From: a virus
Lineage: Duplodnaviria > Heunggongvirae > Uroviricota > Caudoviricetes
Length of the DNA: 64,000 bases
IMG/VR virus record: IMGVR_UViG_3300010049_000010
Location: 128,749-192,748 of that record
Strand: one strand, 5' to 3'
The notes under the pieces were generated by a model that saw only the letters and a program-made list of their open reading frames with translations, had not been told where the DNA came from and ran no database searches. Positions 523 through 35,400 of this stretch are shown here, piece after piece. How positions within the stretch are numbered: position 1 is the stretch's first letter; each line of letters opens with the position of its first letter. The position numbers and the translations under genes are program-made.

Positions 523-2778
523 ATGAGCAAAATAGACAATCCTGCGGGGTCAATAATTACGAATCCATTTACTTTAGATATAGATAAATTAAATCCTAAT
601 AGTATAAATGAAGATTTTCTAAAATTATCTTTTAAAGATCCAAAAGCAATAAATAATTTGATGTATATTATCAAAGATATATTGCAAGGAGATAGCGCCG
701 CCGCCAGAAGAGAAGAATACGCATATCTTAATTTTAATCAATTAAAAGCCGCGTTAGAATGGTTAATGAGTCACGGAATGGATGACTCATTAAAAAATGA
801 TTTATTAATGAATCCTTGGAGACTTACATTTAAAGATCGTCCTCCAACTCCAGAAGAAATGTTGGGTGAGAAATATATTGGCGCAATGAGCGAATCAGTT
901 TGGGAACCAGTTAAAAAAGCTTTTATAGAATATTTTGACCCAATGAAACCATATCGTACAGCAGCATTAAATCCCTCTATTGGAGCAGGAAAATCTACAT
1001 TTACAATGCTTGCGCTACTATACGTTGCTGTATGTTTTGGTTTAATGAGAGACCCTTGGAAATTTTTTAGCATGTCAAAAACATCGGTATTCGTTTTCGT
1101 ATTATGCGCGGTTACATATTCTAAAGCATCTGAAATATATCGAGAACCAATTCAACAATTAATTGAATCTGCTACTTATTGGAAGTGGTGCAGAACACAT
1201 CAAGAAATGTTAAGAGAAGATAGACATTTACAGTTAAGCGATACTGTCGAGTATCTTCCTTGGTCAACTTCTACTAAATCATCGGTATTTCAAACTGGTA
1301 ACGGGTTACAGTGGAAAAACGTATCAAGCGCGGGATCATTATTAGGTATGAATATTTTAATGGGGGCGATGACTGAGATAACATTCTTCTTAGAAGCAGG
1401 AAAGGGATGGAATGCTGAAAAATTAATGGTGTTCTTTTCTAAGTTACGACAGAGAATTAGTAACAGGTTCCAGAACAATTATTATGCCCGATTTATATTA
1501 GACTCATCACCATCTACTTTAGAAGACCCAATACAAAATTGGATGAGTTATGATGCACCACTTAATAAAGCGAACTTTATTTGGAAAGGTTCTCGGTGGA
1601 ATCTATATCCTGGAGAATTTCCAGATTTTTGCAATGTGAAAGACTTAAATGGACCTAATGAGGAAGTTACTGAAAATCATAATTTCGATGTTGGCTTTAA
1701 GTTATTCAAGGGTGGGAGCGGTAAGCCACCACAAGTTTGCGAAAATGAAACTGAAGCAGATCAATTTGAAGAGTCTGAATGTCTCTGGTGTCCAAAGAGA
1801 CAAGTTACTAAAAAGGGTGTTGAAAATTTTTTAGACAGAGCTAAGGAAAATCCAATAGAATTTATGAAAGACATTGCAGGTATTCCAGCAGGACAAGCCG
1901 ATAGAATTTTTTATCAAGGTGAATGGGTAGAAAATTGCTTTAATAACGGGTTAAAAAATATTTATGGATCTATAATCGCATTAGCAGATCAAGAGCCGGA
2001 ACATCTTATTTGGAATCAAGTACATCATTTATTCTTTAATAAAATTCTCGATAGATACTATTACTATTACGAGCCAGGAATTCCTCGCGTAATATCTGTC
2101 GACTTATCTAAAAGTAAAGACTGTACAACTATCACTATGTCTCATATCGAAAGAGACCCAGATCGAATTGACCCATACACAGGACAATCATTGATAGTTT
2201 ACGTTACTGACTTTACTATAGTTCTTGTTCCAAAAGGCGGACTTATAAATCTTGATGCTGTTAAATTCTTTATTATGGATTTAAGACGATTAGGTGGACT
2301 AAACATTAAACACGTTTCATTTGATAATTATCAATCTGAATCAACAAAGCAAGCGCTTACTCGAGCGGGTTTTAATATGGTTTACGTTTCGGTAGATAAA
2401 AATAATGAGTCATACTTAAATTGGATTGACCTTGTAATTCACAAACGTTGGTTTTGTGGAAAAAATATTTTCGTTAAAAATAATATGAATTCACTTTATT
2501 TCGCGAAAAGAAAAACAACGGGCACAGTTAAAGTAGATCACTTTCCCGGTGACTTAAATTACGATTGGCAAAATGGAAGTTGGAATACTTGCACAGCGGG
2601 AGTGAACGCAAAAGACTGCACTGACGCAATCGCCGCAAATATTGAAATAATAAATACTTATATTACTGATTTTATTCCAAATAAAATTTGGAGAGCCGAC
2701 GCTTGTTTTGAGCGAACTTATGAAAACTTAAAAGAAAAAAACTCTGAATATATGAAAAAAGTCGGGCTACAATTTTAA
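523..2778 (+). CDS. terL: Terminase large subunit
   Basis: Walker A SIGAGKST, Walker B-like MGAMTE, RNase H-like nuclease motifs VISVDLS, SFDNYQS, KDCTDAIA; 751 aa. Confidence 0.85.
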   Translation: MSKIDNPAGSIITNPFTLDIDKLNPNSINEDFLKLSFKDPKAINNLMYIIKDILQGDSAAARREEYAYLNFNQLKAALEWLMSHGMDDSLKNDLLMNPWRLTFKDRPPTPEEMLGEKYIGAMSESVWEPVKKAFIEYFDPMKPYRTAALNPSIGAGKSTFTMLALLYVAVCFGLMRDPWKFFSMSKTSVFVFVLCAVTYSKASEIYREPIQQLIESATYWKWCRTHQEMLREDRHLQLSDTVEYLPWSTSTKSSVFQTGNGLQWKNVSSAGSLLGMNILMGAMTEITFFLEAGKGWNAEKLMVFFSKLRQRISNRFQNNYYARFILDSSPSTLEDPIQNWMSYDAPLNKANFIWKGSRWNLYPGEFPDFCNVKDLNGPNEEVTENHNFDVGFKLFKGGSGKPPQVCENETEADQFEESECLWCPKRQVTKKGVENFLDRAKENPIEFMKDIAGIPAGQADRIFYQGEWVENCFNNGLKNIYGSIIALADQEPEHLIWNQVHHLFFNKILDRYYYYYEPGIPRVISVDLSKSKDCTTITMSHIERDPDRIDPYTGQSLIVYVTDFTIVLVPKGGLINLDAVKFFIMDLRRLGGLNIKHVSFDNYQSESTKQALTRAGFNMVYVSVDKNNESYLNWIDLVIHKRWFCGKNIFVKNNMNSLYFAKRKTTGTVKVDHFPGDLNYDWQNGSWNTCTAGVNAKDCTDAIAANIEIINTYITDFIPNKIWRADACFERTYENLKEKNSEYMKKVGLQF

Positions 2779-4139: not shown

Positions 4140-4573
4140 TTTTTAAATTCGTCTTTTTGACCTTCTAACATAGTTATAATTAGCGGAGCTACTCCAGGTT
4201 TTAATACATCTTCATTTACAGACATATCAGCATTTATAACAAATGATGGAAGTTTTTCTTCTTTCATTAAACGTTTAATAAATATTGGAAGAAAATTAAG
4301 TGCTTCCTGCTGACTAGTAAATATTTCTTTACTATGAAATGGAAAAACGAATCGTTGTTCTTTTGCAGCATTTTTTACAAGTTCTATTGGACCTTTATTA
4401 AGTATAATTGGAGTTACAGAATCCAAAGCTTGTATTTCTTCAAATTCATCTCTAATTGGTCTACTAAAAAAAACTACACATTGATATAATTCAGATGGGA
4501 AAGCCCTTTCTTTTGATTTTTCTCCCCCACCTGACCTTCTAATTATTTCGTTAAAATCTAATTTATCACTCAT
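4136..4573 (-). CDS. Hypothetical protein
   Basis: 145-aa ORF translationally coupled to groEL. Confidence 0.6.
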   Translation of the reverse strand: MSDKLDFNEIIRRSGGGEKSKERAFPSELYQCVVFFSRPIRDEFEEIQALDSVTPIILNKGPIELVKNAAKEQRFVFPFHSKEIFTSQQEALNFLPIFIKRLMKEEKLPSFVINADMSVNEDVLKPGVAPLIITMLEGQKDEFKN

Positions 4574-6219
4574 CTTAATCCATCCTCATTTAATATATCA
4601 TCAAGTGACTCAACTCTAAGATTTGGAACGTCTGTAATTATTACTGAATCAACACTCATAAATTGTTCTGCCATATTGTGCGCGTAAATAACAGAATTAA
4701 CGATTACTGCGAAAGGATCTATAATTCCCTTTTTAATTAAGTCTGTTAACTCACCAGACCTTGAATCAAATCCAATAGATTTAACGTTGTCTTTTAATAT
4801 TTCATTTATTACATTATCATAATCATGACCAGAAGAATTTATTAAGACTTTAGCAGGCGTTTTCATAGCCTTCATAAAAGCTTTTATCGCTAAGTTCATT
4901 GAAGTACTTGTTGACATTAAATTATCTGAACTCGCTATTCTTAATAATGCAGTTCCAGCTCCAGGTATGTAACCACCTCTAAGTGATGACCTAACAGCAT
5001 TAATCGCGTCTTCATATCTATCTTTTTTCTCGCCCAATTCTTGAATAGTCAACCCGCCAACATAAATAGTTGCGACTCCGCCAGACATTTTCGCAATTCT
5101 TTCTTTAACAGATTCTATTTCATATTCTGAATAACCTATTTCAGCAGAATCATGATTGACTTTAGCTTGTAATAATTCTATATGCTTATTAAATCTTTCT
5201 TCATTTGTTTTAGCGTCTATAATTATAGTTTTTCCTTTTGATATAATTATCTGTCTTGCTTCGCCTAAACAATCATCTTTGAACTCATTTGTATCAAAAT
5301 CTTGTCCCAAAATTTGAGCGTCTAACATTACCGCTAAATCTAATAAATTATCATTGATTGTATTTTTTGAAGTGCCGGGTGCTAATACGAGTGAGCCTTG
5401 GATTACTTTTTTAGACAATAATTCTCTAAAGAATGCCATTACTTCATCAGTAAAATCTGGAGCAATAATCACTACATCTTTTTTAGCAAGCTGTAATCCT
5501 TGTAATATTGCTTTAATATCCTCAACATCATCAATAACGTTAGCCGACAATAATACTTTCGCGTCATTTAAAATACATTGATCATTAGCTGAATTTACAG
5601 AAAGCGAGCTTAAAAATCCCCTGTCAAATTCTAATCCAGTTGCGATTTTAACAGTAGTTTCTCCTTTGCGAGACAAACTATCTGCTATTGAAACGATACC
5701 ATTATCACCGATTGATAAAAAAGCTTGTTGAATATTTTTAGCGATTTCTTCGTCGCCGTTAGCAGAAACTTTCGCGATGTTAAATATTTGATCCTCACCT
5801 TCTATTTCATGTTTGTAATCTTCTAATTTTTTAATAACATAATCTTTAGCTTCTTTGTAACCTTCTCGTAAATCATTTATGTCAATTCCTTGAATAAGCA
5901 ATTTATATGCTTCCTTGCATAATTCATAAGTTAGAATCGTAGTTGAAGTGCTACCATCACCGTTGATATAATTACTTTTTCCAGCTGCTTCTTTAATTAG
6001 AACAGCTCCGAAGTTTTTAGCTTCATCACTAAACTTAATTTCTTTCGCTACAGTGATTCCGTCTTTGGTAATTTTAACATTACCACCTCTATCAAATGCG
6101 ACTGTTCTTCCTCTTGGACCAAACGTTGATGAAACTGTAGTCGCAACTTCTTGCATTCCAGATAATACTATTTTTCTTGCTTCATTTTGTCTGTATATTT
6201 TTTTACCAGCTACTGCCAT
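4570..6219 (-). CDS. groEL: Phage chaperonin GroEL-like
   Basis: STFGPRGRTV, ITKDGITVAKEI, GDGSTSTT, ERIAKMSGGVATIYVGG, EKKDRYEDAINA, PGAGTAL, GIIDP. Confidence 0.95.
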   Translation of the reverse strand: MAVAGKKIYRQNEARKIVLSGMQEVATTVSSTFGPRGRTVAFDRGGNVKITKDGITVAKEIKFSDEAKNFGAVLIKEAAGKSNYINGDGSTSTTILTYELCKEAYKLLIQGIDINDLREGYKEAKDYVIKKLEDYKHEIEGEDQIFNIAKVSANGDEEIAKNIQQAFLSIGDNGIVSIADSLSRKGETTVKIATGLEFDRGFLSSLSVNSANDQCILNDAKVLLSANVIDDVEDIKAILQGLQLAKKDVVIIAPDFTDEVMAFFRELLSKKVIQGSLVLAPGTSKNTINDNLLDLAVMLDAQILGQDFDTNEFKDDCLGEARQIIISKGKTIIIDAKTNEERFNKHIELLQAKVNHDSAEIGYSEYEIESVKERIAKMSGGVATIYVGGLTIQELGEKKDRYEDAINAVRSSLRGGYIPGAGTALLRIASSDNLMSTSTSMNLAIKAFMKAMKTPAKVLINSSGHDYDNVINEILKDNVKSIGFDSRSGELTDLIKKGIIDPFAVIVNSVIYAHNMAEQFMSVDSVIITDVPNLRVESLDDILNEDGLR

Positions 6220-6624: not shown

Positions 6625-6822
6625 TTAACCTTTCAAAGCTTCATCTATTCTATCTATTTCATATAATATGTTTTTAATTCGTGTAGTGTCTCTATTTTGT
6701 CTGGCATACATTAATTGCTCAATTTTCTTTCTTTTTATTTTGTATAATTGGTTTCCGTTTATTTCTTTGTAAATATTTCCAGATGATTTAGGCAATAATA
6801 TATTTAAGCCTATATTATTCAT
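6625..6822 (-). CDS. Hypothetical protein
   Basis: 65-aa ORF in operon context. Confidence 0.5.
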   Translation of the reverse strand: MNNIGLNILLPKSSGNIYKEINGNQLYKIKRKKIEQLMYARQNRDTTRIKNILYEIDRIDEALKG

Positions 6823-8674
6823 TAATTATTTCTGTGGCGTAACTAATAATATCATCTGCGGTAAAATTAGAAACATATTCGCCAACTTTATTTTTATAAA
6901 TTAATTGTTTTGACTCATATCTTAAGTCTGCTATATGCTGTAAAAACACATCTTTAGCTCTTTTGCTTAATTTAAGTTTTTCAGCGGCTACATCTGGATT
7001 TAATTTAAAATTGCCTGGGTTTTCTATACAAAGTTTAATAAAGTCTTTTAATTTTTCAGCAATAAGAGGTGTAGTTCTTCCAAAGCGATACTTAATAGAT
7101 TCTTTACTTGAGACCGGCTCATCAGTGACTTTTTTCTCAACCTTTTTTTCTAGCTCAGTAGTTTCTTCAGTAGTCATTGGTCTAATATCTGGAGGAAGTG
7201 ATTCTACTTTTTTCGCAAAATCTTCAAAATAACCTTCTTGTTTTAATTCATCAAATGCTTGTTTAAAAACTGGTTCTACAACTTGTTCAGCTGTTACTAT
7301 TTCTTGGTGTTTAATTTTATTATCTGGAAGATCTATAGATGAAGCATCTACTTCACTTATTGGAGTGTCCATTATATTTTTTATTTTTTTTCTTTTTATC
7401 TTTTTAGGTTCTGGTTTAGCTTCTTCTTTTGCTTTTTTAGCTCGAGCTATTTTTTCTTGTAAATTTCTTTTTCTTTTTGGTTTTGATACTTCTGGCACTG
7501 TTACTTCAGACAAAGGAGCTGATGTAAAACTTAATTCTTCAGATTCTTCTTTATCTTTGAATCTATTTATTTCATCATCAAATTTTTGTAATAATTCTTC
7601 AACATTTACGTTATTTGGTATGTGATTTCTAAAATAATATAAAATCTTTCTTGTTACTTTAATGTCAGGTGCGGTTGTATAGATAATTAATTCGATACAA
7701 AATGCCATAAATAATAATATAAATAATTTAATTACTCTTGGTGTGACTCCTAAAAATCCCCCAAGATCGTCGAAAATTATTTGCATTCCTTTTTCACGCT
7801 TTATTTGCGCGTTTAGAGCGTCTAAATTTTGTTCTAATTCTCTAACTACTAATCTTGATCTTGCAATTAATGGTAATTCTAATCCCGCAGTAGTAATGTC
7901 TAATGCTCGAACCGTCATCATAAACTCAGCGTCTAATTCTTCTAATCTCAATTCAAAATTTTCTCCGCGGTCGCGATATTCTATTTCAACCTGTTGTCGT
8001 TGTGATACTGCGTTATTTAATTCTCGTTGAGCGGTGTCCCGTCTTTGCACGGCGCCCGCTCTTTGTGACCAAAGATTAGCTCTAACAGTTTCATAATCTT
8101 CTCTATTTTGGTCAACTCCTCTCCAACGTCTGTCTACATCGTTAAACTCATCAATCATTTCTCTTAAACGATCTTCTAATAAAACTACACGGGTAGATAT
8201 ATTTATATAAGGAACATACTCAGAAAGACTAACATCACTATTATCAGAAAATGCTTCAATACGATCTCTAATCGTACCAACCATTTCTATTTTATTTTCT
8301 ATATTTGTTACTTCTAATTCTTTAGTTGTGTCTGCTGTTTCAGTTGAGTAATATGCGAAGCCGGCTCCAGATGACACGGACATAACTGCTAAAGTTAAAT
8401 AAAATATTAAAAATAATCTTTGAGCCTTTTTTATTTTAGCATCAATAGTTTTTAGATATAATGATGAAAACACATTACGAGATAGAATCGTCGTTACTTT
8501 TGCTGATTCTAATAATATAGAAATACCAAATAAAATGTACCAAAATCCTCCAGTATCAAGAGCCTGAAAGAAGAATACATTTAAAAATATTGATATAAGA
8601 CTCGCAAGCGAGAAAGAAAAATATCTTGCAAATATGAAGATATTTGAATCTAAATTTAATGTGTTTCGTTTCAT
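6815..8674 (-). CDS. Membrane protein with long coiled coil
   Basis: Three N-terminal hydrophobic segments, ~200-aa coiled coil, a further TM (IKLFILLFMAFCIELIIY), Lys/Glu-rich tail. Confidence 0.7.
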   Translation of the reverse strand: MKRNTLNLDSNIFIFARYFSFSLASLISIFLNVFFFQALDTGGFWYILFGISILLESAKVTTILSRNVFSSLYLKTIDAKIKKAQRLFLIFYLTLAVMSVSSGAGFAYYSTETADTTKELEVTNIENKIEMVGTIRDRIEAFSDNSDVSLSEYVPYINISTRVVLLEDRLREMIDEFNDVDRRWRGVDQNREDYETVRANLWSQRAGAVQRRDTAQRELNNAVSQRQQVEIEYRDRGENFELRLEELDAEFMMTVRALDITTAGLELPLIARSRLVVRELEQNLDALNAQIKREKGMQIIFDDLGGFLGVTPRVIKLFILLFMAFCIELIIYTTAPDIKVTRKILYYFRNHIPNNVNVEELLQKFDDEINRFKDKEESEELSFTSAPLSEVTVPEVSKPKRKRNLQEKIARAKKAKEEAKPEPKKIKRKKIKNIMDTPISEVDASSIDLPDNKIKHQEIVTAEQVVEPVFKQAFDELKQEGYFEDFAKKVESLPPDIRPMTTEETTELEKKVEKKVTDEPVSSKESIKYRFGRTTPLIAEKLKDFIKLCIENPGNFKLNPDVAAEKLKLSKRAKDVFLQHIADLRYESKQLIYKNKVGEYVSNFTADDIISYATEIINE

Positions 8675-8708: not shown

Positions 8709-9869
8709 TTAGTAGTTTTTTAGTAACTCTTCTACTTTATCTGTTTTCTCCCAAGAAAAGTTTTCCTTTCCAAAATGGCCATAAGTTGCAGTTGGCAAAT
8801 ATATTGGTTTTTTAAGATCAAGATGTTTAATAATGCCGGCGGGTGTTAAATCAAATACTTTACTAATAGCATTGCTAATTTTTATTTCACCTTCACTGCT
8901 TAAATCACCAAAGGTATCAACATAAATTGATACAGGATGTGGAACGCCGATTGCGTATGATAACTGTATTTCACATTTTGAAGTCAATCCTGCAGCAACT
9001 ATATTTTTTGCGATATATCTTGCCATATATGCAGCCGAACGATCTACTTTACTTGGATCTTTTCCAGAAAATGCGCCGCCGCCATGTCTTCCCATTCCGC
9101 CGTATGTGTCAACGATTATTTTTCTTCCAGTTAAACCAGTATCTCCAGTTGGCCCGCCAACAACAAATTTTCCTGTTGGATTGATAAAATAATTATCATT
9201 AAATGGAAGCCCTGATTCTTCTAATACTGGTCTAATAACTTTAGATATTAAGAAATCTTCTATATCTCTATGTTTTACTGATTCATGATGCTGATGTGAC
9301 ATAACGACTGTATTTACTCTTTTTGGTTTATCATTTTCATATTCAATAGTTACTTGGCTTTTAGCATCAGGTTTTAACCAATTTACTTCACCAGAGTTTC
9401 TTATTGCGGAAGCTCGTTTTAATAATTTGTGTGCGATTGAAATTGCAGCTGGCATTAATTCAGACGTTTCATTGCAAGCAAATCCGAACATCATACCTTG
9501 ATCACCAGCGCCTTGTTGACCTTTAAATTGTTCGAGACCATTTCCACTTACACCTTGGTCAATGTCAGGCGACTGAGTATGAATGGCATTTAATATCGTC
9601 ATTGATTTATAATCGAGACCGTAATTAGGGTCATCGTAGCCGATATCTTTAACTACATTTTTTGCAATATCTTGAATATCAACATAAGTTTTTGTAGTGA
9701 TTTCCCCACCCACTAATATGAGTGAAGATGTCGCATAAGTTTCACAAGCGACTCGGCTATCAGCATCATCTCTTAAACATGCGTCTAAAACTGCGTCAGA
9801 TATTTGGTCACATAATTTGTCTGGATGGCCTTCGGATACTGACTCCGATGTAAATAAATAGTTTCTCAT
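8709..9869 (-). CDS. metK: S-adenosylmethionine synthetase
   Basis: [55 protein letters not shown]. Confidence 0.98.
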
Positions 9870-9878
9870 TATATTAGA

Positions 9879-10298
9879 TTAACTTTTAAATCTAATTCCG
9901 AGATATCTTAAATATTTTATTATTTTTTGAACCATGCCTTCCATATTCGTTGCGAATATTTCTTCATGAAATCCTTCCAATTTATTTACCATATTTATTT
10001 TTTTGTCAAAATAAACGCATGCATGCGATACTTCATGTATGATAGTATATAAATCTAATTTCTCTATAGAGAGACAAATTTCTCCGATGCCATATTTTGT
10101 TGATGATTTTTGTATAAAACATCCTAAAAGTTCTTCGGAGTTATCACCAAAAAATTTCTTATATCTTCTGGCTACGCTTGCAGGATTTTTTAGCAAGACA
10201 AGTTTAACAGTATATCGACTGTTTTCAAAATTAAAATTCACGTTATTTCCTTTCATTTGGATCAAATATTTTCGTAATGCGAATTCCGTAATTTTCAT
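9879..10298 (-). CDS. HExxH-motif protein (putative metallopeptidase); true start may be downstream
   Basis: TIIHEVSHA...EE motif; the annotated start overlaps the FliN gene. Confidence 0.45.
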   Translation of the reverse strand: MKITEFALRKYLIQMKGNNVNFNFENSRYTVKLVLLKNPASVARRYKKFFGDNSEELLGCFIQKSSTKYGIGEICLSIEKLDLYTIIHEVSHACVYFDKKINMVNKLEGFHEEIFATNMEGMVQKIIKYLRYLGIRFKS

Positions 10299-10494
10299 CT
10301 ACGGAAACAACTTCACCTTCTGCATATTTAATATTATTAACATATAAAGTAACTGGCTCTTGATAGTTTTTGTCGAACTCTATAATTGAGCCATTTCCTA
10401 AATGTAATATGTCTTTTACATTTATTTTTTTGTTAGCAAGATCTGCTCTGACTTCGACACAAACATCTGCTAAATGATTAGAATTTAATTCCAT
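10243..10494 (-). CDS. fliN: FliN-like flagellar motor switch (SpoA domain) protein
   Basis: VKDILHLGNGSIIEFDK...EPVTLYVNN...AEGEVVSVDENYGIRITKI matches the FliN/FliY C-terminal consensus; GAGG SD. Confidence 0.85.
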   Translation of the reverse strand: MELNSNHLADVCVEVRADLANKKINVKDILHLGNGSIIEFDKNYQEPVTLYVNNIKYAEGEVVSVDENYGIRITKIFDPNERK

Positions 10495-10521
10495 GATACT
10501 GCCTCTGCTCAGTTCTTTTGT

Positions 10522-11028
10522 TTATTCTTCTTCTTTTTTAGTTAAATCTTCAAGTTTGAGATTGCCAAAAATTGGAATTTTCTTTGGTGCGACTTCTTCT
10601 CGAGGTGGTATAGTAATAGTTAAAAGTCCATTATCGAACTTAACTTCTACTTTTTCTCGATCAAAATATCTTGGGTCAACGTTCCAACTTGTTTTAAGAC
10701 TTTCAATTTTCTTTAATCCAATTTGGAAATAATAATTTTGTGTTTCTTCTTTCTTCTCTTCATTTTTTGGGACATTCACAATAAGATTCAAGCTATCACC
10801 GTCAAATGATAGATTAATCCAATCTTCATGAATTCCAGCGAGCGCTGACTGAATCGTCATTATCTTTGTTTTTTGATCAATGAGGATATTAGTTGGCGGG
10901 AATGATTGTGAAGAAATATTTTTATTAAATCTAACAGGTTGCACGCTGCCTGTTGCAGCTCCGTAATACGCGTCGTTGAATATGTCGTCTATAAGATCAA
11001 ACATATTTCGATAGTTTTTAAAACTCAT
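10522..11028 (-). CDS. Small heat-shock protein Hsp20/alpha-crystallin
   Basis: SFPPTNI..., VKFDNGLLTITIP, C-terminal I-x-I motif (KKIPIF). Confidence 0.9.
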   Translation of the reverse strand: MSFKNYRNMFDLIDDIFNDAYYGAATGSVQPVRFNKNISSQSFPPTNILIDQKTKIMTIQSALAGIHEDWINLSFDGDSLNLIVNVPKNEEKKEETQNYYFQIGLKKIESLKTSWNVDPRYFDREKVEVKFDNGLLTITIPPREEVAPKKIPIFGNLKLEDLTKKEEE

Positions 11029-11112
11029 CTTTTATCTCCTTAGATACTCAACTATTAAGTCCGTGCAGAGGATACGGCACTTTTCATCGGTTCTATTATT
11101 TAGTATATTAAC

Positions 11113-11137
11113 AATAAAGCCCGCACTCGGCGGGCTT
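11113..11137 (-). terminator. Intrinsic terminator
   Basis: AAGCCCGC-N5-GCGGGCTT just downstream of 11145..11546. Confidence 0.7.
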
Positions 11138-11144
11138 CGTTTAC

Positions 11145-11546
11145 TTACGGATCTACTGGATCGTCGTCGTCATCATCGTCTGGGTCTGGACTTACAGGAT
11201 TAACAGGTCCTGCTGTTTCACCAAGTTCGCCTTTAACTGGAACGTTTCTCCATGCTTGGCCATTAACTTGTAATGTTTCGCCAATCGCTTTTCCTTGAAC
11301 TTCAATTTCTGAAGTAGGTTTAACAGTTGGATCTACAACTCTTGGTTGGAAACCAGATAAGTCAACTTTTACTTTTCCAGATCTCGGTTGCATTTCAGAT
11401 GGAAGCGTTGTAATTCCTTCTTTTGAAGCTACGATTCTGCCTTCATCATCATACACTCTGTAAAAATGATCATTATAGCCGTTTTGTCCCGTTACACCGG
11501 TTTCGGCTACTCTTCGCTGTTTTTTTATAGTATTCTTTTCAGCCAT
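11145..11546 (-). CDS. Hypothetical protein with acidic Pro/Asp tail
   Basis: AAGGAG SD, TAACTAATTATT motif upstream, own terminator. Confidence 0.7.
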   Translation of the reverse strand: MAEKNTIKKQRRVAETGVTGQNGYNDHFYRVYDDEGRIVASKEGITTLPSEMQPRSGKVKVDLSGFQPRVVDPTVKPTSEIEVQGKAIGETLQVNGQAWRNVPVKGELGETAGPVNPVSPDPDDDDDDDPVDP

Positions 11547-11567
11547 TGTAATCTCCTTAATAATTAG

Positions 11568-11816
11568 TTAGTCAAACAATTCAACCTTCTTATCCTCTAT
11601 CGCCTTTAGAAGAGAAGCGTGAACTCTGACGAACTCATTTTGGAGATGCTGTTGACCGCGCTGTAAATCATTTATTTGTTTTCTAACATTCTCGTTAAAA
11701 TTTTGCTGTTCTTTTAGATAATATTCCATTTGTTGCACAAAAATTTCAATGGACCACTGTCCTGGTATTTGTTGAGGAGGTCCTAGAGGTGTTTTTTGTT
11801 GGTTATATCTGAACAT
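11568..11816 (-). CDS. Hypothetical coiled-coil protein
   Basis: 82 aa; TTACTA-AATAAT-ATG start. Confidence 0.6.
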   Translation of the reverse strand: MFRYNQQKTPLGPPQQIPGQWSIEIFVQQMEYYLKEQQNFNENVRKQINDLQRGQQHLQNEFVRVHASLLKAIEDKKVELFD

Positions 11817-11837
11817 ATTATTTAGTAAATAGATTAA

Positions 11838-12098
11838 CTAATCAAAAAGTTCTGAATCTCTATCCTTTAATTCTTGTCTAAAAGCATCAATTTGATGCTG
11901 CATGCTCATTAATATTTTACTTATTTCTATTAATGTAGGATTAGTTTTTATTTCATTATCTAATTTATAATATTCTGCCTTAAGATTAGAAATTTCATCA
12001 ACAACAGTGTCTTTAAATAATTTCAGATACATTATTTGATCTCTTAATGGAATATTATCATGTAGTTTATCATTATATCTTAATTCTTCGATGTTCAT
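11838..12098 (-). CDS. Hypothetical coiled-coil protein
   Basis: 86 aa; GGAGG SD. Confidence 0.6.
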   Translation of the reverse strand: MNIEELRYNDKLHDNIPLRDQIMYLKLFKDTVVDEISNLKAEYYKLDNEIKTNPTLIEISKILMSMQHQIDAFRQELKDRDSELFD

Positions 12099-12236
12099 TT
12101 TTCCTCCACTAATTTAGCATATCGTTTCTTACCAATTTTAATTATTATTTCATTCATATCGGGATTATAAAATTCATGTATTTCTTTAATGACATCAATT
12201 AACTTAGTTTCCGAGTTAAATTTAATCTCAGGCATT

Positions 12237-13001
12237 TCAAATGATTGGGGCCCGAACATCAGCTTCTCCTTTCATGTAACAATAAATACAGTTATGCTGA
12301 CAAGTTTTACTAGCAACTAACTGTTTTTTAATTCCCAAACATTGGCAAAATTCTCTTTGGTCACACTTATCAACATTTTCTTCTAATTTAGCGTTCATTA
12401 ACTTTAAATCAATCTCAGTAATACAGCCAGTACATTCTATTCCAGGCTCACCGCAAATTTCTGTGAACGGGAAATTATTTATTACTTCTAACCTGAGATC
12501 TAATGGAGCGTGCATAGTATGAAAATGAGTTAAAGTTGGGTCCCATCTATATGCTTGTTTAAGTCGGTGTAATAATTCAAAATGTCCATCTTTTTCTAAT
12601 CTTTCAATAACGTGATTATATAAATCTAATATTGAGATTCTTATCCTCTTAAAGCCCAAACTTTTGACTATATTATATATCTGCTTTGATTGCTGCACAA
12701 AGTCAGGAAGGGGAATTATTGGATCTATCCTTATTACAAGTCGGTCTTTCTGCTCTATCTTTTTTATTACTTCTATTATTTTTTGGGGATTAGGAACATC
12801 TGGCTCGATGAAAGTGCTGCCATAACCAGTTATCGTTGTGTGAACAATTATATTTTCTTGATTTAAAATACTTGGATAAATCTCTAATAACTTAAGAAGG
12901 TCTTTAGTAATTAAAATAGTTGGTTCTCTTTTTACGAGAGCCCATTTTTCCCAAGATCTATCAAAAACTGGGTCACCATATTCTGTAATCCCACATTTCA
13001 T
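12237..13001 (-). CDS. DUF1848-like / radical-SAM-related protein
   Basis: HTTITGYG..IEPDVP, IRIDPIIP, C-terminal QREFCQC and CQHNCIYCY. Confidence 0.7.
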   Translation of the reverse strand: MKCGITEYGDPVFDRSWEKWALVKREPTILITKDLLKLLEIYPSILNQENIIVHTTITGYGSTFIEPDVPNPQKIIEVIKKIEQKDRLVIRIDPIIPLPDFVQQSKQIYNIVKSLGFKRIRISILDLYNHVIERLEKDGHFELLHRLKQAYRWDPTLTHFHTMHAPLDLRLEVINNFPFTEICGEPGIECTGCITEIDLKLMNAKLEENVDKCDQREFCQCLGIKKQLVASKTCQHNCIYCYMKGEADVRAPII

Positions 13002-13002
13002 A

Positions 13003-13263
13003 TTAATCTATCTTTACAATTTTTGATTTTGAAAAATTCCGGAAACTGAGCATTCCTTCTTTGAACTTTTTGTATTCAGCAGCTGCTTCTTCTTCCGACT
13101 TTTGTGACATATCAGTATCTCTAATCATATCACGCCAAACTTGTTTTTTTTCTTCAGCATCAAGTTTTGAGATATCGTATCCGAGTAAATTAGTTCCTGT
13201 TTCTTCAGTAACTATCACTTCCCTAGGAGTGTCTTTGTAGACAAACTTTTCAATTCTTAGCAT
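13003..13263 (-). CDS. Hypothetical protein
   Basis: 86-aa ORF with SD. Confidence 0.6.
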   Translation of the reverse strand: MLRIEKFVYKDTPREVIVTEETGTNLLGYDISKLDAEEKKQVWRDMIRDTDMSQKSEEEAAAEYKKFKEGMLSFRNFSKSKIVKID

Positions 13264-13795
13264 ATTTTTTCCTCTTAAATATTTGTGATAACTTATAAAA
13301 AAAGTTATCTATTTTTATGTTAAAAAATAACCACATATTATGTCTAAATTGCTCCCAATGATAATGTTTATCAAAGTGAATTTCTAATAGATCTTCATGA
13401 GAGTTATTCTTTTTTATTATTTTAATATGTTGATTTTTGTTAGTCCACTCACCTTTCCAAGGAAGATATATTTGTTTTTCTGAATCATCTTCAAATTTAA
13501 CGACAACAGAAGTAACATCGCGACCTTTTGAGAAACGAGTCCAACAATCTTCCTTAGAAGGTTGCACTCCTTCTGGACCTGCAAAATTAGTATTAGAAAG
13601 ATTATCTTTAAATTCTTTTAACTCTGATTTAAAATAAAAATATTCAGTAGATTCACTAGTAGAAAAATCTCCTGTTTGAGCCATATAACTTTGATGACAT
13701 TTACCAAAATGAAAACTATAATATGGTTTATGTGACAAATCTAAAAAGAGAACTTCACAGTTTTCTAATACAAATTCTAAACCTTTTATCTTCAT
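13250..13795 (-). CDS. Hypothetical protein
   Basis: 181 aa; GTTAATAT-N6-ATG start. Confidence 0.6.
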   Translation of the reverse strand: MKIKGLEFVLENCEVLFLDLSHKPYYSFHFGKCHQSYMAQTGDFSTSESTEYFYFKSELKEFKDNLSNTNFAGPEGVQPSKEDCWTRFSKGRDVTSVVVKFEDDSEKQIYLPWKGEWTNKNQHIKIIKKNNSHEDLLEIHFDKHYHWEQFRHNMWLFFNIKIDNFFYKLSQIFKRKKYAKN

Positions 13796-14493
13796 TATTT
13801 TATATTAACTCTTTCGTATTCATTCGTTTCGGTGTCTATTTTAACAAGACAATTATGTTTTGGACAATCTGAAAGCAAAATAAACCCACCATTATTATGT
13901 TCTAATTTTACAGGAGGGGTAGCATTATCTGTATTTATTTCACTATGACCGACTGCGAAATTATATCCATCTAAAGCATATTTTCTTAATGCTCCAGGTC
14001 TAATCCAAAGTGGTCCTTCAAATTGATTATTTCCGTAACCATCAGGGCCAACCCATTTAAAATACCCAGATCTTTCTTTGAACATTTGATTTATTTCAGA
14101 TGGGTCTTTCATTCCCGCATGTCTCATCCAATCTTTTGAAACTCCACCGTGCACGAAAATCCATTTATCAGCAATGAAAATTACATCAAAAAGATTATTA
14201 TGAACTTTTAACATTTGATATATGTCAAATGCAACACCAGGTTGATGTCCACTGCATCTTTCATCGAGATAATATGATGTATCATGATTCCCCCAAAGTA
14301 AAACTACTTTATCAGGATGTTTCTTTTTGAACTTTAATATTTGAATAAAATTAGATAATTGTCTATTATATCCAGTTGTCCAATGATCCCAGTAGTCACC
14401 AAGGAAAACTATTTTATCAACTTCATCAATGAGTTTTCTAGCTTTTTTCCAATGTTCTTGACCATGTGGATCCGGCACAGTTATTATTTTCAC
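13795..14493 (-). CDS. Calcineurin-like metallophosphoesterase
   Basis: DPHG, FLGDYWD, WGNHD, FVHGG, VGHS. Confidence 0.9.
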   Translation of the reverse strand: MKIITVPDPHGQEHWKKARKLIDEVDKIVFLGDYWDHWTTGYNRQLSNFIQILKFKKKHPDKVVLLWGNHDTSYYLDERCSGHQPGVAFDIYQMLKVHNNLFDVIFIADKWIFVHGGVSKDWMRHAGMKDPSEINQMFKERSGYFKWVGPDGYGNNQFEGPLWIRPGALRKYALDGYNFAVGHSEINTDNATPPVKLEHNNGGFILLSDCPKHNCLVKIDTETNEYERVNIK

Positions 14494-14649: not shown

Positions 14650-15003
14650 TCAGGTTGTTTCATAAATTCTCCTTACATTAATTAGTGGGATTTTTTCAAA
14701 TACGCTAAATTGTATGCAACGTTGTCCTGGAGGAGGATCAAAACCAAAATTATGTTTAACACTATCAGCACTATTAGAATGAACAGGAATAGTTCCACCA
14801 ACTGCTTGAGAGGCGTCTTCTCTTTTTGGCTCGTACTCGACTTCTAATAAAACATTTCCATAACTTGGATCTTTCCACAATTCTGGATCAGGTGCTAAAT
14901 AAGTATAACGATAAGTTCCATCTCCACCATGATGTCCCCAAAGATATCCATCTTCTTGAATCTTTTTCCAAGCGTCTTCATTAGTCCAGTGATAAAATTT
15001 CAT
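14650..15003 (-). CDS. Putative ADP-ribosyltransferase-fold protein
   Basis: N-terminal FYHWT...KIQEDGYL, then YTYLA and LLEVEY; weak by-eye match. Confidence 0.35.
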   Translation of the reverse strand: MKFYHWTNEDAWKKIQEDGYLWGHHGGDGTYRYTYLAPDPELWKDPSYGNVLLEVEYEPKREDASQAVGGTIPVHSNSADSVKHNFGFDPPPGQRCIQFSVFEKIPLINVRRIYETT

Positions 15004-15740
15004 CAGTGATTCTCACAAACGTTGTTAGGATAAGATGGTCTGCGGATTTTTTCTGGTGATGGTTCTTCAGTATCAAAATAACGAGGTAATTGTTTTCCTG
15101 AAAAAGCTCTTTGAGGAATGCCATCATTAGTGTGCCAATATCCTCGGGGAGGTTTTGGATCATCCCAAATATCACCATTTTCATCTATAAGAGTTTTTTT
15201 CTTTCCCAATTCTTGTATTTCAAAAATAATATGATCTTCATTTTCTTTTTCTAAGCTGTTAACGATAAAAACAAGCTTATCTAAATCTCCCCAAACTATT
15301 GGAGTATCAGGCCACTGGGAGGGATTTTCACAAAAGTTTTTAGTTTCTTTTAATAAAGTAAGTGATTCTTGTCTGCCATCAATATAATCTTTATAATCTA
15401 TGTGCATATTTCTAATAGATTTTATCGCTCTAATTATGTAACTTGTATTAAAACTGTTTAGATATATTCCGTATTTTTTCAACTCGCGATTTCTGGGTTT
15501 TAATTCTCTGTTTATCTTTAATTCGTAACCACGATCTTGTAACAAGTCAGTTAACGAAATAGATTCCTCTGCATCGAGGTCATCAAAGAGTTTTAAAATT
15601 TTATCCACTGTACTATTCATTTTTACCTCACATATTCTATATGTATTCCATAGTCTACAAAAATGACTTTTTTTATTTTGAGTTTTATCTTCTAAACACT
15701 CTTGACAATCATAAGCATCGATGCCTAAACCATCACTCAC
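15003..15740 (-). CDS. Hypothetical protein with possible degenerate ribosomal bL12 (L7/L12)-like segments
   Basis: VDKILKLFDDLDAEESISLTDLLQDRG; IIRAIKSIR...LLKETKNFCENP. Confidence 0.35.
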   Translation of the reverse strand: MSDGLGIDAYDCQECLEDKTQNKKSHFCRLWNTYRICEVKMNSTVDKILKLFDDLDAEESISLTDLLQDRGYELKINRELKPRNRELKKYGIYLNSFNTSYIIRAIKSIRNMHIDYKDYIDGRQESLTLLKETKNFCENPSQWPDTPIVWGDLDKLVFIVNSLEKENEDHIIFEIQELGKKKTLIDENGDIWDDPKPPRGYWHTNDGIPQRAFSGKQLPRYFDTEEPSPEKIRRPSYPNNVCENH

Positions 15741-31856: not shown

Positions 31857-32646
31857 ACCACCATTTAAAAACATATCTGCCACATACATAAACTAATGTT
31901 GTGACTCCGACTATAACGCAACCTGTAGTAAAAGATTTACTTCCAATAAAGTCGTTAATCGAATTATCCATTGTCATTCCTGCGATGCCCAAACCAATAA
32001 AAGTCCCACCTACTGTAAAACTAATTCCAGTTCCAAGTTGAACATAAGGCTGTATATTTAATCTTCGCTCTAAAGAAATATAATCTCTTTCCCAACGATC
32101 AATTTGTAAATTAGCAGTCGCAATTTCTTCTCTTAAACCTTCAGCAAGTTGTTCCATGTGCCACCAATTTTCGATAGCATCTTCAACACCTCTAGTTGCT
32201 GATGCCAAGCGCCTCTCTAAGTCTGCGATTATCCTCTGATTGTTCTCTAAAATATTCGTTAATAAGTCGTTGTCTAACAATAAGTCCATCGATAGTTGTT
32301 GCAGTGCTGTTAATTGCTCCTTCAAATTGAGTAAGTCTTGCATTTGAGCGTCTAACCAACTCAACGGCTCGTCTATTACTATCTCCGAGTTCGCTTGCGA
32401 GTTCACTTGATATACGAAGCTCTGTAAGTGCGTCTCTAAGTTGTTCGCCTTGCTCAGCATGAATGAGCTCAAATTCATCGATGATGAGTTCCATTCTTGC
32501 AACAGTAGCTCGTAACTCCTCTGCGTGTTTGATAATTCCTGACTTGCTTCCGTAGTATATATTGAACCCAATAGAAACAGCAAGAAGAACGCTGAGAATA
32601 ATAATTGTGAGGGTAGTTTTTTTAATTTTAATTGTTTGCTTTTCAT
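31855..32646 (-). CDS. Signal peptide + coiled coil + C-terminal hydrophobic segments; candidate spanin-like subunit
   Basis: Basic N-terminus plus LLFSAFFLLFLLG, long heptad region, two C-terminal hydrophobic stretches; overlaps the next gene in another frame. Confidence 0.55.
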   Translation of the reverse strand: MKSKQLKLKKLPSQLLFSAFFLLFLLGSIYTTEASQELSNTQRSYELLLQEWNSSSMNLSSFMLSKANNLETHLQSFVYQVNSQANSEIVIDEPLSWLDAQMQDLLNLKEQLTALQQLSMDLLLDNDLLTNILENNQRIIADLERRLASATRGVEDAIENWWHMEQLAEGLREEIATANLQIDRWERDYISLERRLNIQPYVQLGTGISFTVGGTFIGLGIAGMTMDNSINDFIGSKSFTTGCVIVGVTTLVYVCGRYVFKWW

Positions 32647-32650
32647 CCAC
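32192..32650 (-). CDS. N-terminal TM + coiled-coil protein; candidate i-spanin (Rz-like)
   Basis: GTG start 7 nt after AAGGAG; TM TLTIIILSVLLAVSIGFNIYY; helical domain after it. Confidence 0.55.
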   Translation of the reverse strand: MDEKQTIKIKKTTLTIIILSVLLAVSIGFNIYYGSKSGIIKHAEELRATVARMELIIDEFELIHAEQGEQLRDALTELRISSELASELGDSNRRAVELVRRSNARLTQFEGAINSTATTIDGLIVRQRLINEYFREQSEDNRRLREALGISN

Positions 32651-32697
32651 AAAATATCTCCTTTATAAGTAATTAGTAAATGAAAAGCAATTTGTGA

Positions 32698-32910
32698 TTA
32701 GTGTTTTTGTGTAATTCTGCCAGTTTTTGCTGCTGCACTATTGTCTACTTTATCACGTTTCTGTAGTTGTTCTAACACTTTGTCTGCATACTCTGCTGCG
32801 GACTCAGGTGTAGATCCTGCTTCGTGAAGTTTTGATTGGTACCAATCATACCACACATCACGCTCGAAATTGTTCGAAAATTTCAACATTTTTGTGTCCT
32901 CCTTTTTCAT
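32698..32910 (-). CDS. Hypothetical protein
   Basis: 70-aa ORF. Confidence 0.55.
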   Translation of the reverse strand: MKKEDTKMLKFSNNFERDVWYDWYQSKLHEAGSTPESAAEYADKVLEQLQKRDKVDNSAAAKTGRITQKH

Positions 32911-32914
32911 TTTT

Positions 32915-33178
32915 CTATTCCTCGTCTAACAGACGCCTTAGATCTTCTTTTGGAAGAATTATAATTCTTGACCAGCTTGTTTGAATCCAAATATATTCTG
33001 ATTTTGGATATCTTTCTTCCCATTTTGGGAGAAAATTAGTCATCGCATTTATATCTGAATTTCCACGATTATATAATTCATATATATTAAATCTTTTTTC
33101 ATACGTAATTATATCAAAATCTATTCCATTACAAGATATAAATAATATTGGAATTAAAATCAATAATTTTTTAAGCAT
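32915..33178 (-). CDS. Putative lipoprotein
   Basis: MLKKLLILIPILFISC-NG signal with lipobox-like Cys. Confidence 0.55.
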   Translation of the reverse strand: MLKKLLILIPILFISCNGIDFDIITYEKRFNIYELYNRGNSDINAMTNFLPKWEERYPKSEYIWIQTSWSRIIILPKEDLRRLLDEE

Positions 33179-33587
33179 AAGCAATTTCAAATTCATTCAA
33201 TTTTTCTTCATATTCTTTTTTAAGATTATCAAGTTTAGTTTCATATTCTGCATATTTTTTTGAATATTCAAGACGTATTTCAAATTCTTTTATACATTTT
33301 TCTTCCCATTTACCACAATTCTCTATATTAGAGAGAGTGCATTTTATTTCTTTTTCAAAATAAGGTTTAAGTTTCTCAGATATTAAAATAGCATATTTTT
33401 TTATATCCTCTAAAGAAAGATTGCAGATTTCATCTTCAGTCTTAATAAGAGCTAAATCAGCTTGTTCTTTAGGAAGAATAACTTCTTTCATTTCTTTTAA
33501 TTTCTTTTGTTCTTTTTTTAATTTTTTTTTATAATCAACAATTTTTTCTGCTGGGAATGTTATTCCGTGTGTTAAATATACAGCCAT
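33171..33587 (-). CDS. Hypothetical coiled-coil protein
   Basis: 138 aa; AAGGAG SD. Confidence 0.6.
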   Translation of the reverse strand: MAVYLTHGITFPAEKIVDYKKKLKKEQKKLKEMKEVILPKEQADLALIKTEDEICNLSLEDIKKYAILISEKLKPYFEKEIKCTLSNIENCGKWEEKCIKEFEIRLEYSKKYAEYETKLDNLKKEYEEKLNEFEIAYA

Positions 33588-33596
33588 TATTTCTCC

Positions 33597-34097
33597 TTAA
33601 TCGTATTTTATATCTATCTCTGAGTCTGGTGCCCAAAGAAACTTACGCAATGTTTCTTTATCGGTAAACATTTTTGCGCTTTCTTCTGAATTGTAAGGAT
33701 TAGATCCATGATTTAATTCGTATGCAATTTTATTGCTTGCGAATGCGTCATGTGTCCATTCATCATCTTCATTATACATATAATTTATTTTAATTTCTTC
33801 TACACCTAAGTCTTCTTGTAATACTTCACAAAACATATCAGTCCAATTAGTATTTCCTTTTTCAGATCCAGGACCTTCCATAATATAACACATCAATGCG
33901 GCCCAATTAAGTTTATCAATATTACTTCGATAAGTTTCATAATTCCAATCAGTTGTTCCTCCCAAAGTTTGAGGAATATCTAATCGTTTTACATTACCAA
34001 ATGCACTATGTAATTTTGGAATTTGAAGTGGGTCTTTTCCAATTATAATAAAACTGGAACTTGAACTGTTGCTTACGAAGCCATTTCTAATTTTCAT
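33597..34097 (-). CDS. Hypothetical protein with MKIRNGFVSNSSSSSF N-terminus
   Basis: Shares N-terminus with 23027..23377. Confidence 0.75.
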   Translation of the reverse strand: MKIRNGFVSNSSSSSFIIIGKDPLQIPKLHSAFGNVKRLDIPQTLGGTTDWNYETYRSNIDKLNWAALMCYIMEGPGSEKGNTNWTDMFCEVLQEDLGVEEIKINYMYNEDDEWTHDAFASNKIAYELNHGSNPYNSEESAKMFTDKETLRKFLWAPDSEIDIKYD

Positions 34098-34288
34098 TTT
34101 TTATCTCCTCGATCTTTACGAATTGCTTCATATAAATGATATTTATCTTCGTTGAAATTTATTCTATCAACGTATTCAATATCATTTCTCCTTTGTAACT
34201 CATTTGCTATATTAACTAAAGCTTGAGCTATCTCCCAGTGAACACTATTATATTCTCTGGTGTTATGATCAACTTCGTATTTTTTCAT
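34094..34288 (-). CDS. Hypothetical protein
   Basis: 64 aa, coupled to neighbours. Confidence 0.5.
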   Translation of the reverse strand: MKKYEVDHNTREYNSVHWEIAQALVNIANELQRRNDIEYVDRINFNEDKYHLYEAIRKDRGDKK

Positions 34289-34593
34289 AATTGAAGCCTA
34301 TCAATAGTATCTTCACCATAACTTTCGGCAAGCGTTTTCATAATAGCAGATGGGCCGAAAAACAACTTAACGTCTTTATTTTCATCAATTTTTCTTAAAT
34401 CTAATATATCTTCTGATTCTGTATTATACACATTAAAAATGTTTTCTTCATTAGATTTAAGATACATAAATAAATCACCATTGTTTGCTGTATTATGTCC
34501 AATTGGAAATAGATTTTCAGCTATACTCATCGTATTATTATGAATAGTAGCTGCTTCCTTTTTCTTTTGTCTATTACTTTTTACTTCTTCCAT
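34285..34593 (-). CDS. Hypothetical protein
   Basis: 102 aa; GTTAATAT-N6-ATG start. Confidence 0.6.
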   Translation of the reverse strand: MEEVKSNRQKKKEAATIHNNTMSIAENLFPIGHNTANNGDLFMYLKSNEENIFNVYNTESEDILDLRKIDENKDVKLFFGPSAIMKTLAESYGEDTIDRLQL

Positions 34594-34695
34594 AATTTTA
34601 TATTAACATACTTTTAATATTATAACATTTTAGTATGAAATTTCTTTCCTTTTTAAAGATAAATTTAGAAATGCAAGAATTTGCCGACTAAACGG

Positions 34696-35400
34696 CTAAA
34701 TCATGTAATCGAATGAGATTCCTTTTACAACTGCTTTTTTTCCTTGACAGCATTTTCTAATTGATGATTCACTTATTCCGGTCGCTTCCGAGGCTTCTTT
34801 TACGCTCGCATAATATTTATTATTAGAGTCTAAAATTGGTTTTTTCTTAGCATTAGATATAGCTTTATTATGTGATTCTGGTCTGTTCGCGGCATATTTA
34901 GCTATTGAATTCGCTCTTTTATTTAAAACGTCTTGATCTAAATTACTCATTGCATAAGATATTTTTCTTTTTATAATATTAGCCCTTCGTTTTCCATAAG
35001 CTTTTTCATAAGTTTCAGGCCTGTAAAATATTTGATAACATTCTTTTGCTTCTTGATATTCTTTGTAAAATATACTTTTTAAATCTCTAAATTTTCGAAG
35101 TATACAATAAGCTTCTGTATAATTAGCTATTGAATAATTTTCCCATCCCGGCATAAATTTAAATTCTCTTGCTCTTAATATATGCGCGCGAAAATGAATA
35201 GAAACTGGTAACCAGATTTCTTCTTCTTGATCTAAATCAGTACACTCGAATGATGGAATAACGTGATGTTTTTGAATTAAAATATTGCATTTATTATAAT
35301 GTTCTTTAGTAAATTGTCGCATATAAGTCATTAATTCCATATAAGAGTTTATTTTTTCAGCATGATAAAATTCAGATAAAAATGAAGTATCTATAATCAT
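34696..35400 (-). CDS. HNH homing-endonuclease-like protein with NUMOD1-type HTH
   Basis: HHVIPS...LPVSIHFRAH; C-terminal YASVKEASEATGISESSIRKCCQGK. Confidence 0.7.
   Translation of the reverse strand: MIIDTSFLSEFYHAEKINSYMELMTYMRQFTKEHYNKCNILIQKHHVIPSFECTDLDQEEEIWLPVSIHFRAHILRAREFKFMPGWENYSIANYTEAYCILRKFRDLKSIFYKEYQEAKECYQIFYRPETYEKAYGKRRANIIKRKISYAMSNLDQDVLNKRANSIAKYAANRPESHNKAISNAKKKPILDSNNKYYASVKEASEATGISESSIRKCCQGKKAVVKGISFDYMI

Follow-up and report, generated by a model that had tools for sequence, protein, structure and literature searches.

A phage-borne FliN SPOA-domain variant and a companion FliM-peptide gene in a jumbo phage that probably infects spirochetes

Cyanophage psbA is the standing example of a host machine subunit that a phage has captured and kept under selection, and FlaGrab, a phage protein that binds the flagellar filament, reportedly reduces the motility of the host. 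PIT4 of Pseudomonas phage LSL4 binds histidine kinases and also reduces host motility (PMC10714779). Neither PIT4 nor FlaGrab is described in those sources as a host-derived subunit of the flagellar switch, and the published phage motility effectors that we found act on signaling kinases or on the filament. In the literature on phage switch genes and on the phages of spirochetes and termites, of which few subscription papers were covered, no paper on a phage-encoded FliN, FliM, or FliG was found; the main text of a survey of 224 jumbo phage genomes contains none of flagell-, FliN, FliM, chemotaxis, or SpoA, and its supplements could list such genes (PMC7824862).

SPOA domains are dimeric; the partner of FliM is FliN, and the C-ring contains the two at a FliM:FliN ratio of 1:3 (PMC4832279, PMC4443714). 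The N-terminal peptide of FliM (FliM_N) is the high-affinity site for phosphorylated CheY (CheY-P), and the FliN substitution A93D strongly impairs FliM_N-CheY-P binding (PMC7957414). The FliN patch L68/A93/V111/V113/Y118 (Salmonella numbering here and below), which was mapped in enterobacteria and whose use in spirochetes is an extrapolation, binds FliH (PMC7505661), and V113 is among the valines that face the FliH spoke (PMC6248999; see also PMC9114704). In the injectisome, the SPOA2-only products YscQ-C and Spa33-C are lone SPOA2 domains that join the ring as separate proteins (PMC4832279).

The window analyzed here is a stretch of 64,000 nucleotides from the linear virus record IMGVR_UViG_3300010049_000010 (G000), which is 261,131 nt long and about 79% complete. 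An earlier note, made from the sequence of the window alone, had pointed to a stand-alone SPOA-domain open reading frame (ORF) with its own Shine-Dalgarno site, and both are there (Table 1), as are the motifs ADLA, NYQEP, and GEVVSVDENYGIRIT that it had read in the protein, P0001. The profile search that the note had proposed bears out the family: the Pfam model FliMN_C (PF01052) matches residues 7-77 over model positions 2-72 of 73, at an E value of 3.6e-23 and 81.7 bits against a gathering cutoff of 23.8. On the NCBIfam fliN model (TIGR02480), P0001 scores 80.5 bits, just below the curated cutoff of 84.05, and five scanned relatives fall on both sides of it, with three passing (85.3, 94.5, and 86.8) and two falling short. 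This fliN score is about twice that on the FliM model (34.8 bits) or the SctQ model (40.8 bits; cutoff, 100.8), and the match to the FliY model, 376 positions long, is confined to positions 300-375, the phosphatase region being missing.

Table 1. Features of the fliN neighborhood in G000 (window positions unless a contig is named)
Feature	Position	Strand	Remarks
FliM CheY-docking peptide gene (P0008)	G000:C1:125406-125819 (L007:11406-11819)	minus	137 aa; 2.9 kb before window start
groEL-like chaperonin	4570..6219	minus	part of same conserved block as hsp20-fliN
Gene for 619-aa protein with three hydrophobic segments	6815..8674	minus	adjoins fliN downstream in five relatives
metK	8709..9869	minus	insertion here relative to relatives; served as host marker
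PHROG 1365 ORF	9879..10298	minus	profile match; start probably GTG at 10241, directly past fliN stop
Stand-alone FliN-type SPOA-domain gene (P0001)	10243..10494	minus	83 aa, intact ORF; without FliY N-terminal region
GAGG, Shine-Dalgarno-like site	10502..10505	minus	7 nt 5' of fliN ATG; modest Shine-Dalgarno site
hsp20	10522..11028	minus	directly upstream of fliN in 6/6 syntenic loci
Terminator-like hairpin	11116..11138	minus	upstream of hsp20; consensus scan only

Against the FliN/FliY reference set (PF01052; TIGR02480; PDB 1YAB, 1O6A, 4YXB/4YXC, and 8UMD), P0001 resembles the C-terminal SPOA domain in that it keeps 22 of 29 conserved positions and aligns gap-free over residues 8-82 with the FliN of Thermotoga and of Salmonella (Salmonella residues 57-131, an offset of 49); unlike that domain, it is phage encoded, lies outside a flagellar operon, and carries V113S, L92N, A93Y, G94Q, and D98T. 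Its identity to FliY of the order that holds an uncultured Treponema record (the Treponema order below) is 47-49%, and less derived relatives reach 63%. YscQ-C and Spa33-C serve the cell's own machine, and the fliN score of P0001 is double its SctQ score. In contrast to cyanophage psbA, P0001 would target a mechanical signaling switch, and it is truncated and surface altered rather than a like-for-like replacement. No PHROGs family was found for P0001, and a BFVD search returned 0 matches at an E value of 0.001 or better. The monomer AlphaFold2 models are weak (pLDDT 60.8 and 65.2), as expected because an SPOA chain folds as an intertwined dimer; the top PDB matches of the weak monomer model in Foldseek are FliN chains, but at an rmsd of about 13 Å. 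Because P0001 falls below the equivalog cutoff, has an altered patch, and lies outside a flagellar operon, we do not class it as a canonical FliN. It is a real, selected, phage-borne FliN SPOA-domain variant, with a fold that its sequence marks as FliN-like.

The setting of fliN is a chaperone block (hsp20, groEL) and not a motility block. The earlier note had placed the gene between hsp20 and metK; hsp20 is indeed its upstream neighbor, but the PHROG 1365 ORF intervenes on the metK side, and the downstream order is the PHROG 1365 ORF, metK, the gene for the 619-aa protein, two small ORFs, and groEL. In five relatives, the PHROG 1365 ORF is absent between fliN and the membrane-protein gene, and by comparison with them metK and the PHROG 1365 ORF are an insertion in G000. 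The hairpin upstream of hsp20, from a scan that found 4 against 2.2 in shuffles, is the probable boundary of the hsp20-fliN unit, and a sigma-70 promoter scan was at chance level (19 versus 18.4). In RNA run X3, a contig piece lies over hsp20 and none is listed over fliN, and contigs cannot show absence. At three related loci (L014:7975-7997, L015:7975-7997, and L096:795-819), fliN lacks a Shine-Dalgarno site and has an A/T box (TTAAT...) fused to the ATG; a pattern like this box has five matches in G000, and the fliN of the window has GAGG in its place.

The carrier is a tailed jumbo phage, given a length of more than 200 kb and virion genes: among 79 unannotated G000 proteins, PHROGs gave matches to a tail tube (E = 1.2e-15), a baseplate wedge (E = 1.7e-14), and, weakly, a tail sheath, and none of these 79 matched capsid, portal, or terminase families. 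The stretch is contained in three of the five listed sequencing runs, all from termite gut. The earlier note had named host contamination as one finding that would undo its claim, and the risk is real in general, as one GenBank "phage" match is a bacterial flagellar operon. For the fliN of the window, the chance of contamination or of a chimeric assembly is vanishingly small. In two DNA runs that are possibly the source data, one 14.3-kb contig covers window positions 9096-14000 with 0 differences, and read depth across fliN is flat at about 13.4-14. The third-position GC content (GC3) is typical of the phage (0.18 versus a genome median of 0.20), as is codon adaptation (rank 138 of 297), and the order hsp20-fliN-membrane protein is repeated in five independent loci (L014 [= L097], L015, L096, L098, and L167) at 54-64% identity, a synteny that refutes contamination. 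The flat depth, phage-like codons, and synteny thus mark fliN as an old resident.

Several other genes were noted as well. A type IB topoisomerase gene (window 44813-46492, minus) has all three eukaryote-type Pfam domains (Topoisom_I_N, Topoisom_I, and Topo_C_assoc). A 751-aa P-loop protein (window 523-2778, plus), 67-76% identical among relatives, has no Pfam, PHROG, or PDB match and, on a reading of its motifs, may be terminase-like. The product of window 15003-15740 (minus), which has no Pfam match and has shorter homologs in relatives, contains a segment that we take to resemble the C-terminal motif of ribosomal L7/L12. C2H2 zinc-finger repeats (L011:14483-15193, minus), TET-associated glycosyltransferases with a radical SAM gene (L009:8583-11753), and a NAD salvage set of NAPRTase, NAD synthase, and an isochorismatase-family protein (L010:9585-15338) were also seen.

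The earlier note had suggested a search for other phage carriers, and this yielded, besides the five syntenic loci, a further stand-alone copy in a nonsyntenic virus record (L270). A contig of 328 kb also codes for a protein identical to P0001. One branch (support, 97-98) unites 11 stand-alone sequences, of which four (P0002, P0004, P0006, and P0007) have no visible gene context. The stem of this clade is long (about 0.6-1.1), and the end branch of P0001 is the longest or near-longest among the syntenic members (0.67-0.77). A search with the neighboring 751-aa protein gave 6 loci, three of which have fliN (G104, G002, and G003). Two more do not extend far enough to show whether they have it, and the sixth, the 41-kb fragment G105, contains the groEL and membrane-protein genes of the block with no hsp20-fliN. 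Across the six loci, pN is 0.12-0.30 and pS is 0.60-0.83 in all 15 pairs, and the 10 pairs that are not saturated give fliN dN/dS values of 0.06-0.31, resembling those of hsp20 and groEL. Synonymous sites are near saturation and the protein is conserved, which is purifying selection. Single-sequence viral scans with P0001 and with GroEL gave no matches, and of the 80 loci from a MetK viral scan, the 7 that were examined include no syntenic relative. P0001 matched 7 records among the GenBank phages. Two of these candidates were rejected as phage FliN: in MaAM05 (MW495066.1), the matching gene is as long as FliY and belongs to a pomA-fliM cluster surrounded by housekeeping genes, and MT835480 has a 420-aa, FliY-length ORF in bacterial DNA. 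The record named Microcystis phage MaAM05 itself reads, over the stretch examined (L012; MW495066.1, 100480-120716), as a bacterial chromosome (bioD, murJ, pomA, fliM, fabI, and glyS). Plasmid matches to P0001 numbered 161 records, and the 15 listed are ordinary FliN or FliY at 40-44%.

What distinguishes the clade is the surface of the domain. We compared eight clade members (alignment A2) with 149 library representatives and 30 Treponema-order FliY domains. The representatives agree to at least 85% at 29 positions. Six or more of the eight phage copies keep 22 of these, which indicates that the fold is maintained; another four are variable, and at three none of the eight keeps the residue, namely G94 (D, N, or Q), D98 (T), and V113 (S in seven copies and A in one, a count biased by VVS-containing search patterns that found some members). 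Position 113 is V in 140 of the 149 representatives and in 30 of the 30 Treponema-order FliY domains, and it is also S or A in three contigs found via the neighboring gene and in L270, which was found with patterns that do not cover the position. L92 reads N in 8/8 phage copies versus 5/149 representatives. In P0001, N43-Y44-Q45 correspond to L92-A93-G94, T49 to D98, and S64 to V113, and the hydrophobic patch is not intact, with L19, V62, and Y69 kept and Y44 and S64 changed. The note had singled out NYQEP at the LAGEP site: the changes at L92 and G94 are clade-wide, but A93 is kept in seven of eight members and A93Y is the reading of P0001; the note had not flagged V113S. Its other substitution, ADLA for VELG, is present and is private to P0001, since E67 is kept in six of eight members and G69 in seven. 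The private changes D18, A20, F40, and Y44 affect sites that cells and most relatives conserve, and the KNY motif of P0001 is shared with P0007 and L270. An internal control comes from G104, in which a FliM-FliN fusion keeps LAGEP and GEVVVIDENF and the stand-alone copy is altered.

No other flagellar gene had been seen by the earlier note, and that holds within the window, but the gene for a FliM N-terminal peptide, P0008, lies shortly before it. Seventeen consecutive residues of it are identical to the FliM start in 15 of the 28 Treponema-order FliM proteins parsed (30 loci); a probable coiled coil and then an LFD tail follow. The peptide is invariant at 14 columns, and the rest of the family is about 35% identical. 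The gene has the same position in G002, G003, and G104, so that fliN and P0008 occur together in these three and in G000; in G105, which spans both syntenic sites, neither was found, and this co-occurrence is drawn from five contigs, four of them incomplete. P0008 had no match among GenBank phages. Ten G000 ORFs, P0008 among them, end in LF[D/E], mostly ELFD or DLFD, and two others are small genes (window 11568-11816 and 11838-12098, minus) that lie upstream of hsp20. In G000, of whose 301 called ORFs of at least 60 aa 297 were scanned against Pfam, those 297 contain no flagellar domain other than FliMN_C, and six-frame searches of the roughly 79%-complete record found no FliG, MotA, or full-length FliM. 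Among the five virus records searched, a MotA fragment occurs in one (G002) and FliG in one (G104). The former (L263:1348-1695, minus) is a 115-aa fragment corresponding to the cytoplasmic part of MotA (47% over 53 aa) and is absent from the syntenic site in G000; the latter, in a complete 329-kb relative, is a full FliG accompanied by a 465-aa FliM-FliN fusion (G104:C1, about 32170-34770; L200), besides the stand-alone FliN. Two further virus records carry near-canonical genes among ORFans, fliM-fliN-fliG-like in L271 (4902-7481) and a 334-aa FliM-FliN fusion in L272 (5218-6222), and these suggest repeated capture of switch genes.

Which cell does this phage infect, and where did its fliN come from? 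MetK matched 39 of 41 Treponema-order genomes, at 62-71% in the 38 full-length matches, versus 55-59% for five non-spirochete controls. Together with the FliM-identical companion peptide, this makes a spirochete host likely, and we conclude that the host is probably a spirochete, in which the FliN role would be carried by a FliY of about 300-430 aa. The donor of fliN is left unfixed by the trees, all three of which are quick searches on 88 columns: tree 1 groups the phage branch with Treponema-order FliY (support, 81), trees 2 and 3 group it with non-spirochete rows (support, 86-98), and the AU test does not reject a placement with Treponema-order FliY (P = 0.52). Among the 149 representatives, the 8 that best match the little-derived L096 are 86-100% identical to Treponema-order FliY, and those that best match P0001 itself are mixed. 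About 20 of 101 Treponema-order genomes (L213-L232) have a second, divergent FliN of about 81 aa; its gene often immediately precedes one for a 600-aa FliM-like protein, outside the flagellar operon. These paralogs share the size and single-domain layout of P0001, but they keep the canonical VV[V/I] patch, which P0001 does not, and form a separate branch (support, 91-98); they were rejected as the donor.

These observations are consistent with a tentative model, to which we give somewhat less than an even chance, in which P0001 is a signal-blind C-ring subunit and P0008 is a CheY-P sponge. We posit that P0001 would partner with the SPOA domain of FliM or FliY from the host and become part of the C-ring spiral. 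There the lone SPOA domain, with its kept core, would take FliY places, so that the FliY N-terminal region would be lost and a polar patch presented. P0001 in the ring is predicted to bind CheY-P poorly, and P0008 would soak up CheY-P or compete for it. Spirochetes without CheY-P input run without reversing. The joint effect of the two proteins would be motors deaf to chemotaxis signals in an infected spirochete, which may run instead of reversing or flexing. The kept fold positions, the replacement of G94, D98, and V113 in 8/8 copies, the G104 control, and the conserved companion all count for this model; the retention of A93, the residue best tied to CheY, in seven of eight members counts against it, as do the chaperone-block setting, the long end branch of P0001, and its four private changes at conserved sites. 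The earlier note had also offered the exclusion of flagellotropic phages as a purpose, which is unlikely because the probable spirochete host has periplasmic flagella (PMC6248999).

V113 also belongs to the FliH patch, and the same substitutions therefore fit a block of export equally well. We consider this main rival, a block of export or assembly, unlikely. P0001 would enter or titrate the C-ring and, without a proper FliH site, detach the FliH-FliI ATPase or destabilize the ring, so that new flagella would not be built and resources would be saved. That V113, replaced in every copy, faces the FliH spoke (PMC6248999) and that the FliM-FliN heterodimer is what FliH binds (PMC4443714) both argue for it, and with three FliN to one FliM in the C-ring (PMC4832279), one gene could affect many sites. 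Yet V111, V112, L68, and the aromatic residue at 118 are kept, the conserved CheY-docking companion is left unexplained, and a relative with intact FliG and a FliM-FliN fusion (G104) fits modulation better than destruction. Those same near-canonical genes in G104, and the FliM, FliN, and FliG of L271 and L272, would suit a supportive role, in which, in the manner of psbA, a C-ring subunit that exchanges fast would be replenished by the phage once the host is shut off, keeping the cell swimming, with the substitutions as tolerated drift or tuning. The conserved core and purifying selection agree with such a spare part, but we hold it to be improbable: the clade has lost three positions at which cells are about 90% invariant and the probable host order is invariant in 30/30, and fliG and full-length fliM were not found in the 79%-complete G000.

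Could P0001 instead act outside the flagellar system, as a repurposed SPOA dimer working, for example, with Hsp20, GroEL, or the neighboring membrane protein? The long stem branch, the altered partner surface, and the constant location, in five relatives, with hsp20 on one side and the membrane-protein gene on the other are all compatible with this, but G000 has another fragment derived from the motor, and relatives have more (the MotA fragment of G002; FliG and FliM-FliN in G104), which makes a flagellar target the simpler reading, and we regard repurposing as quite improbable. It is very improbable that the clade gene is functional and the P0001 copy is decaying. The private changes D18, A20, F40, and Y44 and a mean pN of about 0.26 from P0001 to its relatives, versus about 0.21 among them, would fit decay; the frame is nonetheless intact, dN/dS is 0.12-0.31 in the three computable P0001 pairs, the KNY motif recurs in P0007 and L270, and codon use is typical of the genome.

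Extending the signal-blind-subunit model to the clade, we speculate that the jumbo phages of spirochetes possess a modular kit made up of mimics of the flagellar switch and take over steering by substituting motor subunits, a generalization that we consider possible but doubtful. The core of such a kit would be the FliN ring subunit and the coiled-coil CheY-P sponge, to which some lineages would add FliG, FliM-FliN fusions, or the MotA fragment. If this were true, a virus would edit the motor switch from inside, by means of a host-derived and selectively altered C-ring subunit. The clade-wide substitutions are also a natural experiment on which surface of FliN is used for CheY-P switching and which for FliH-dependent export. 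Finally, the clade offers a handle on the little-known phages of termite-gut spirochetes.
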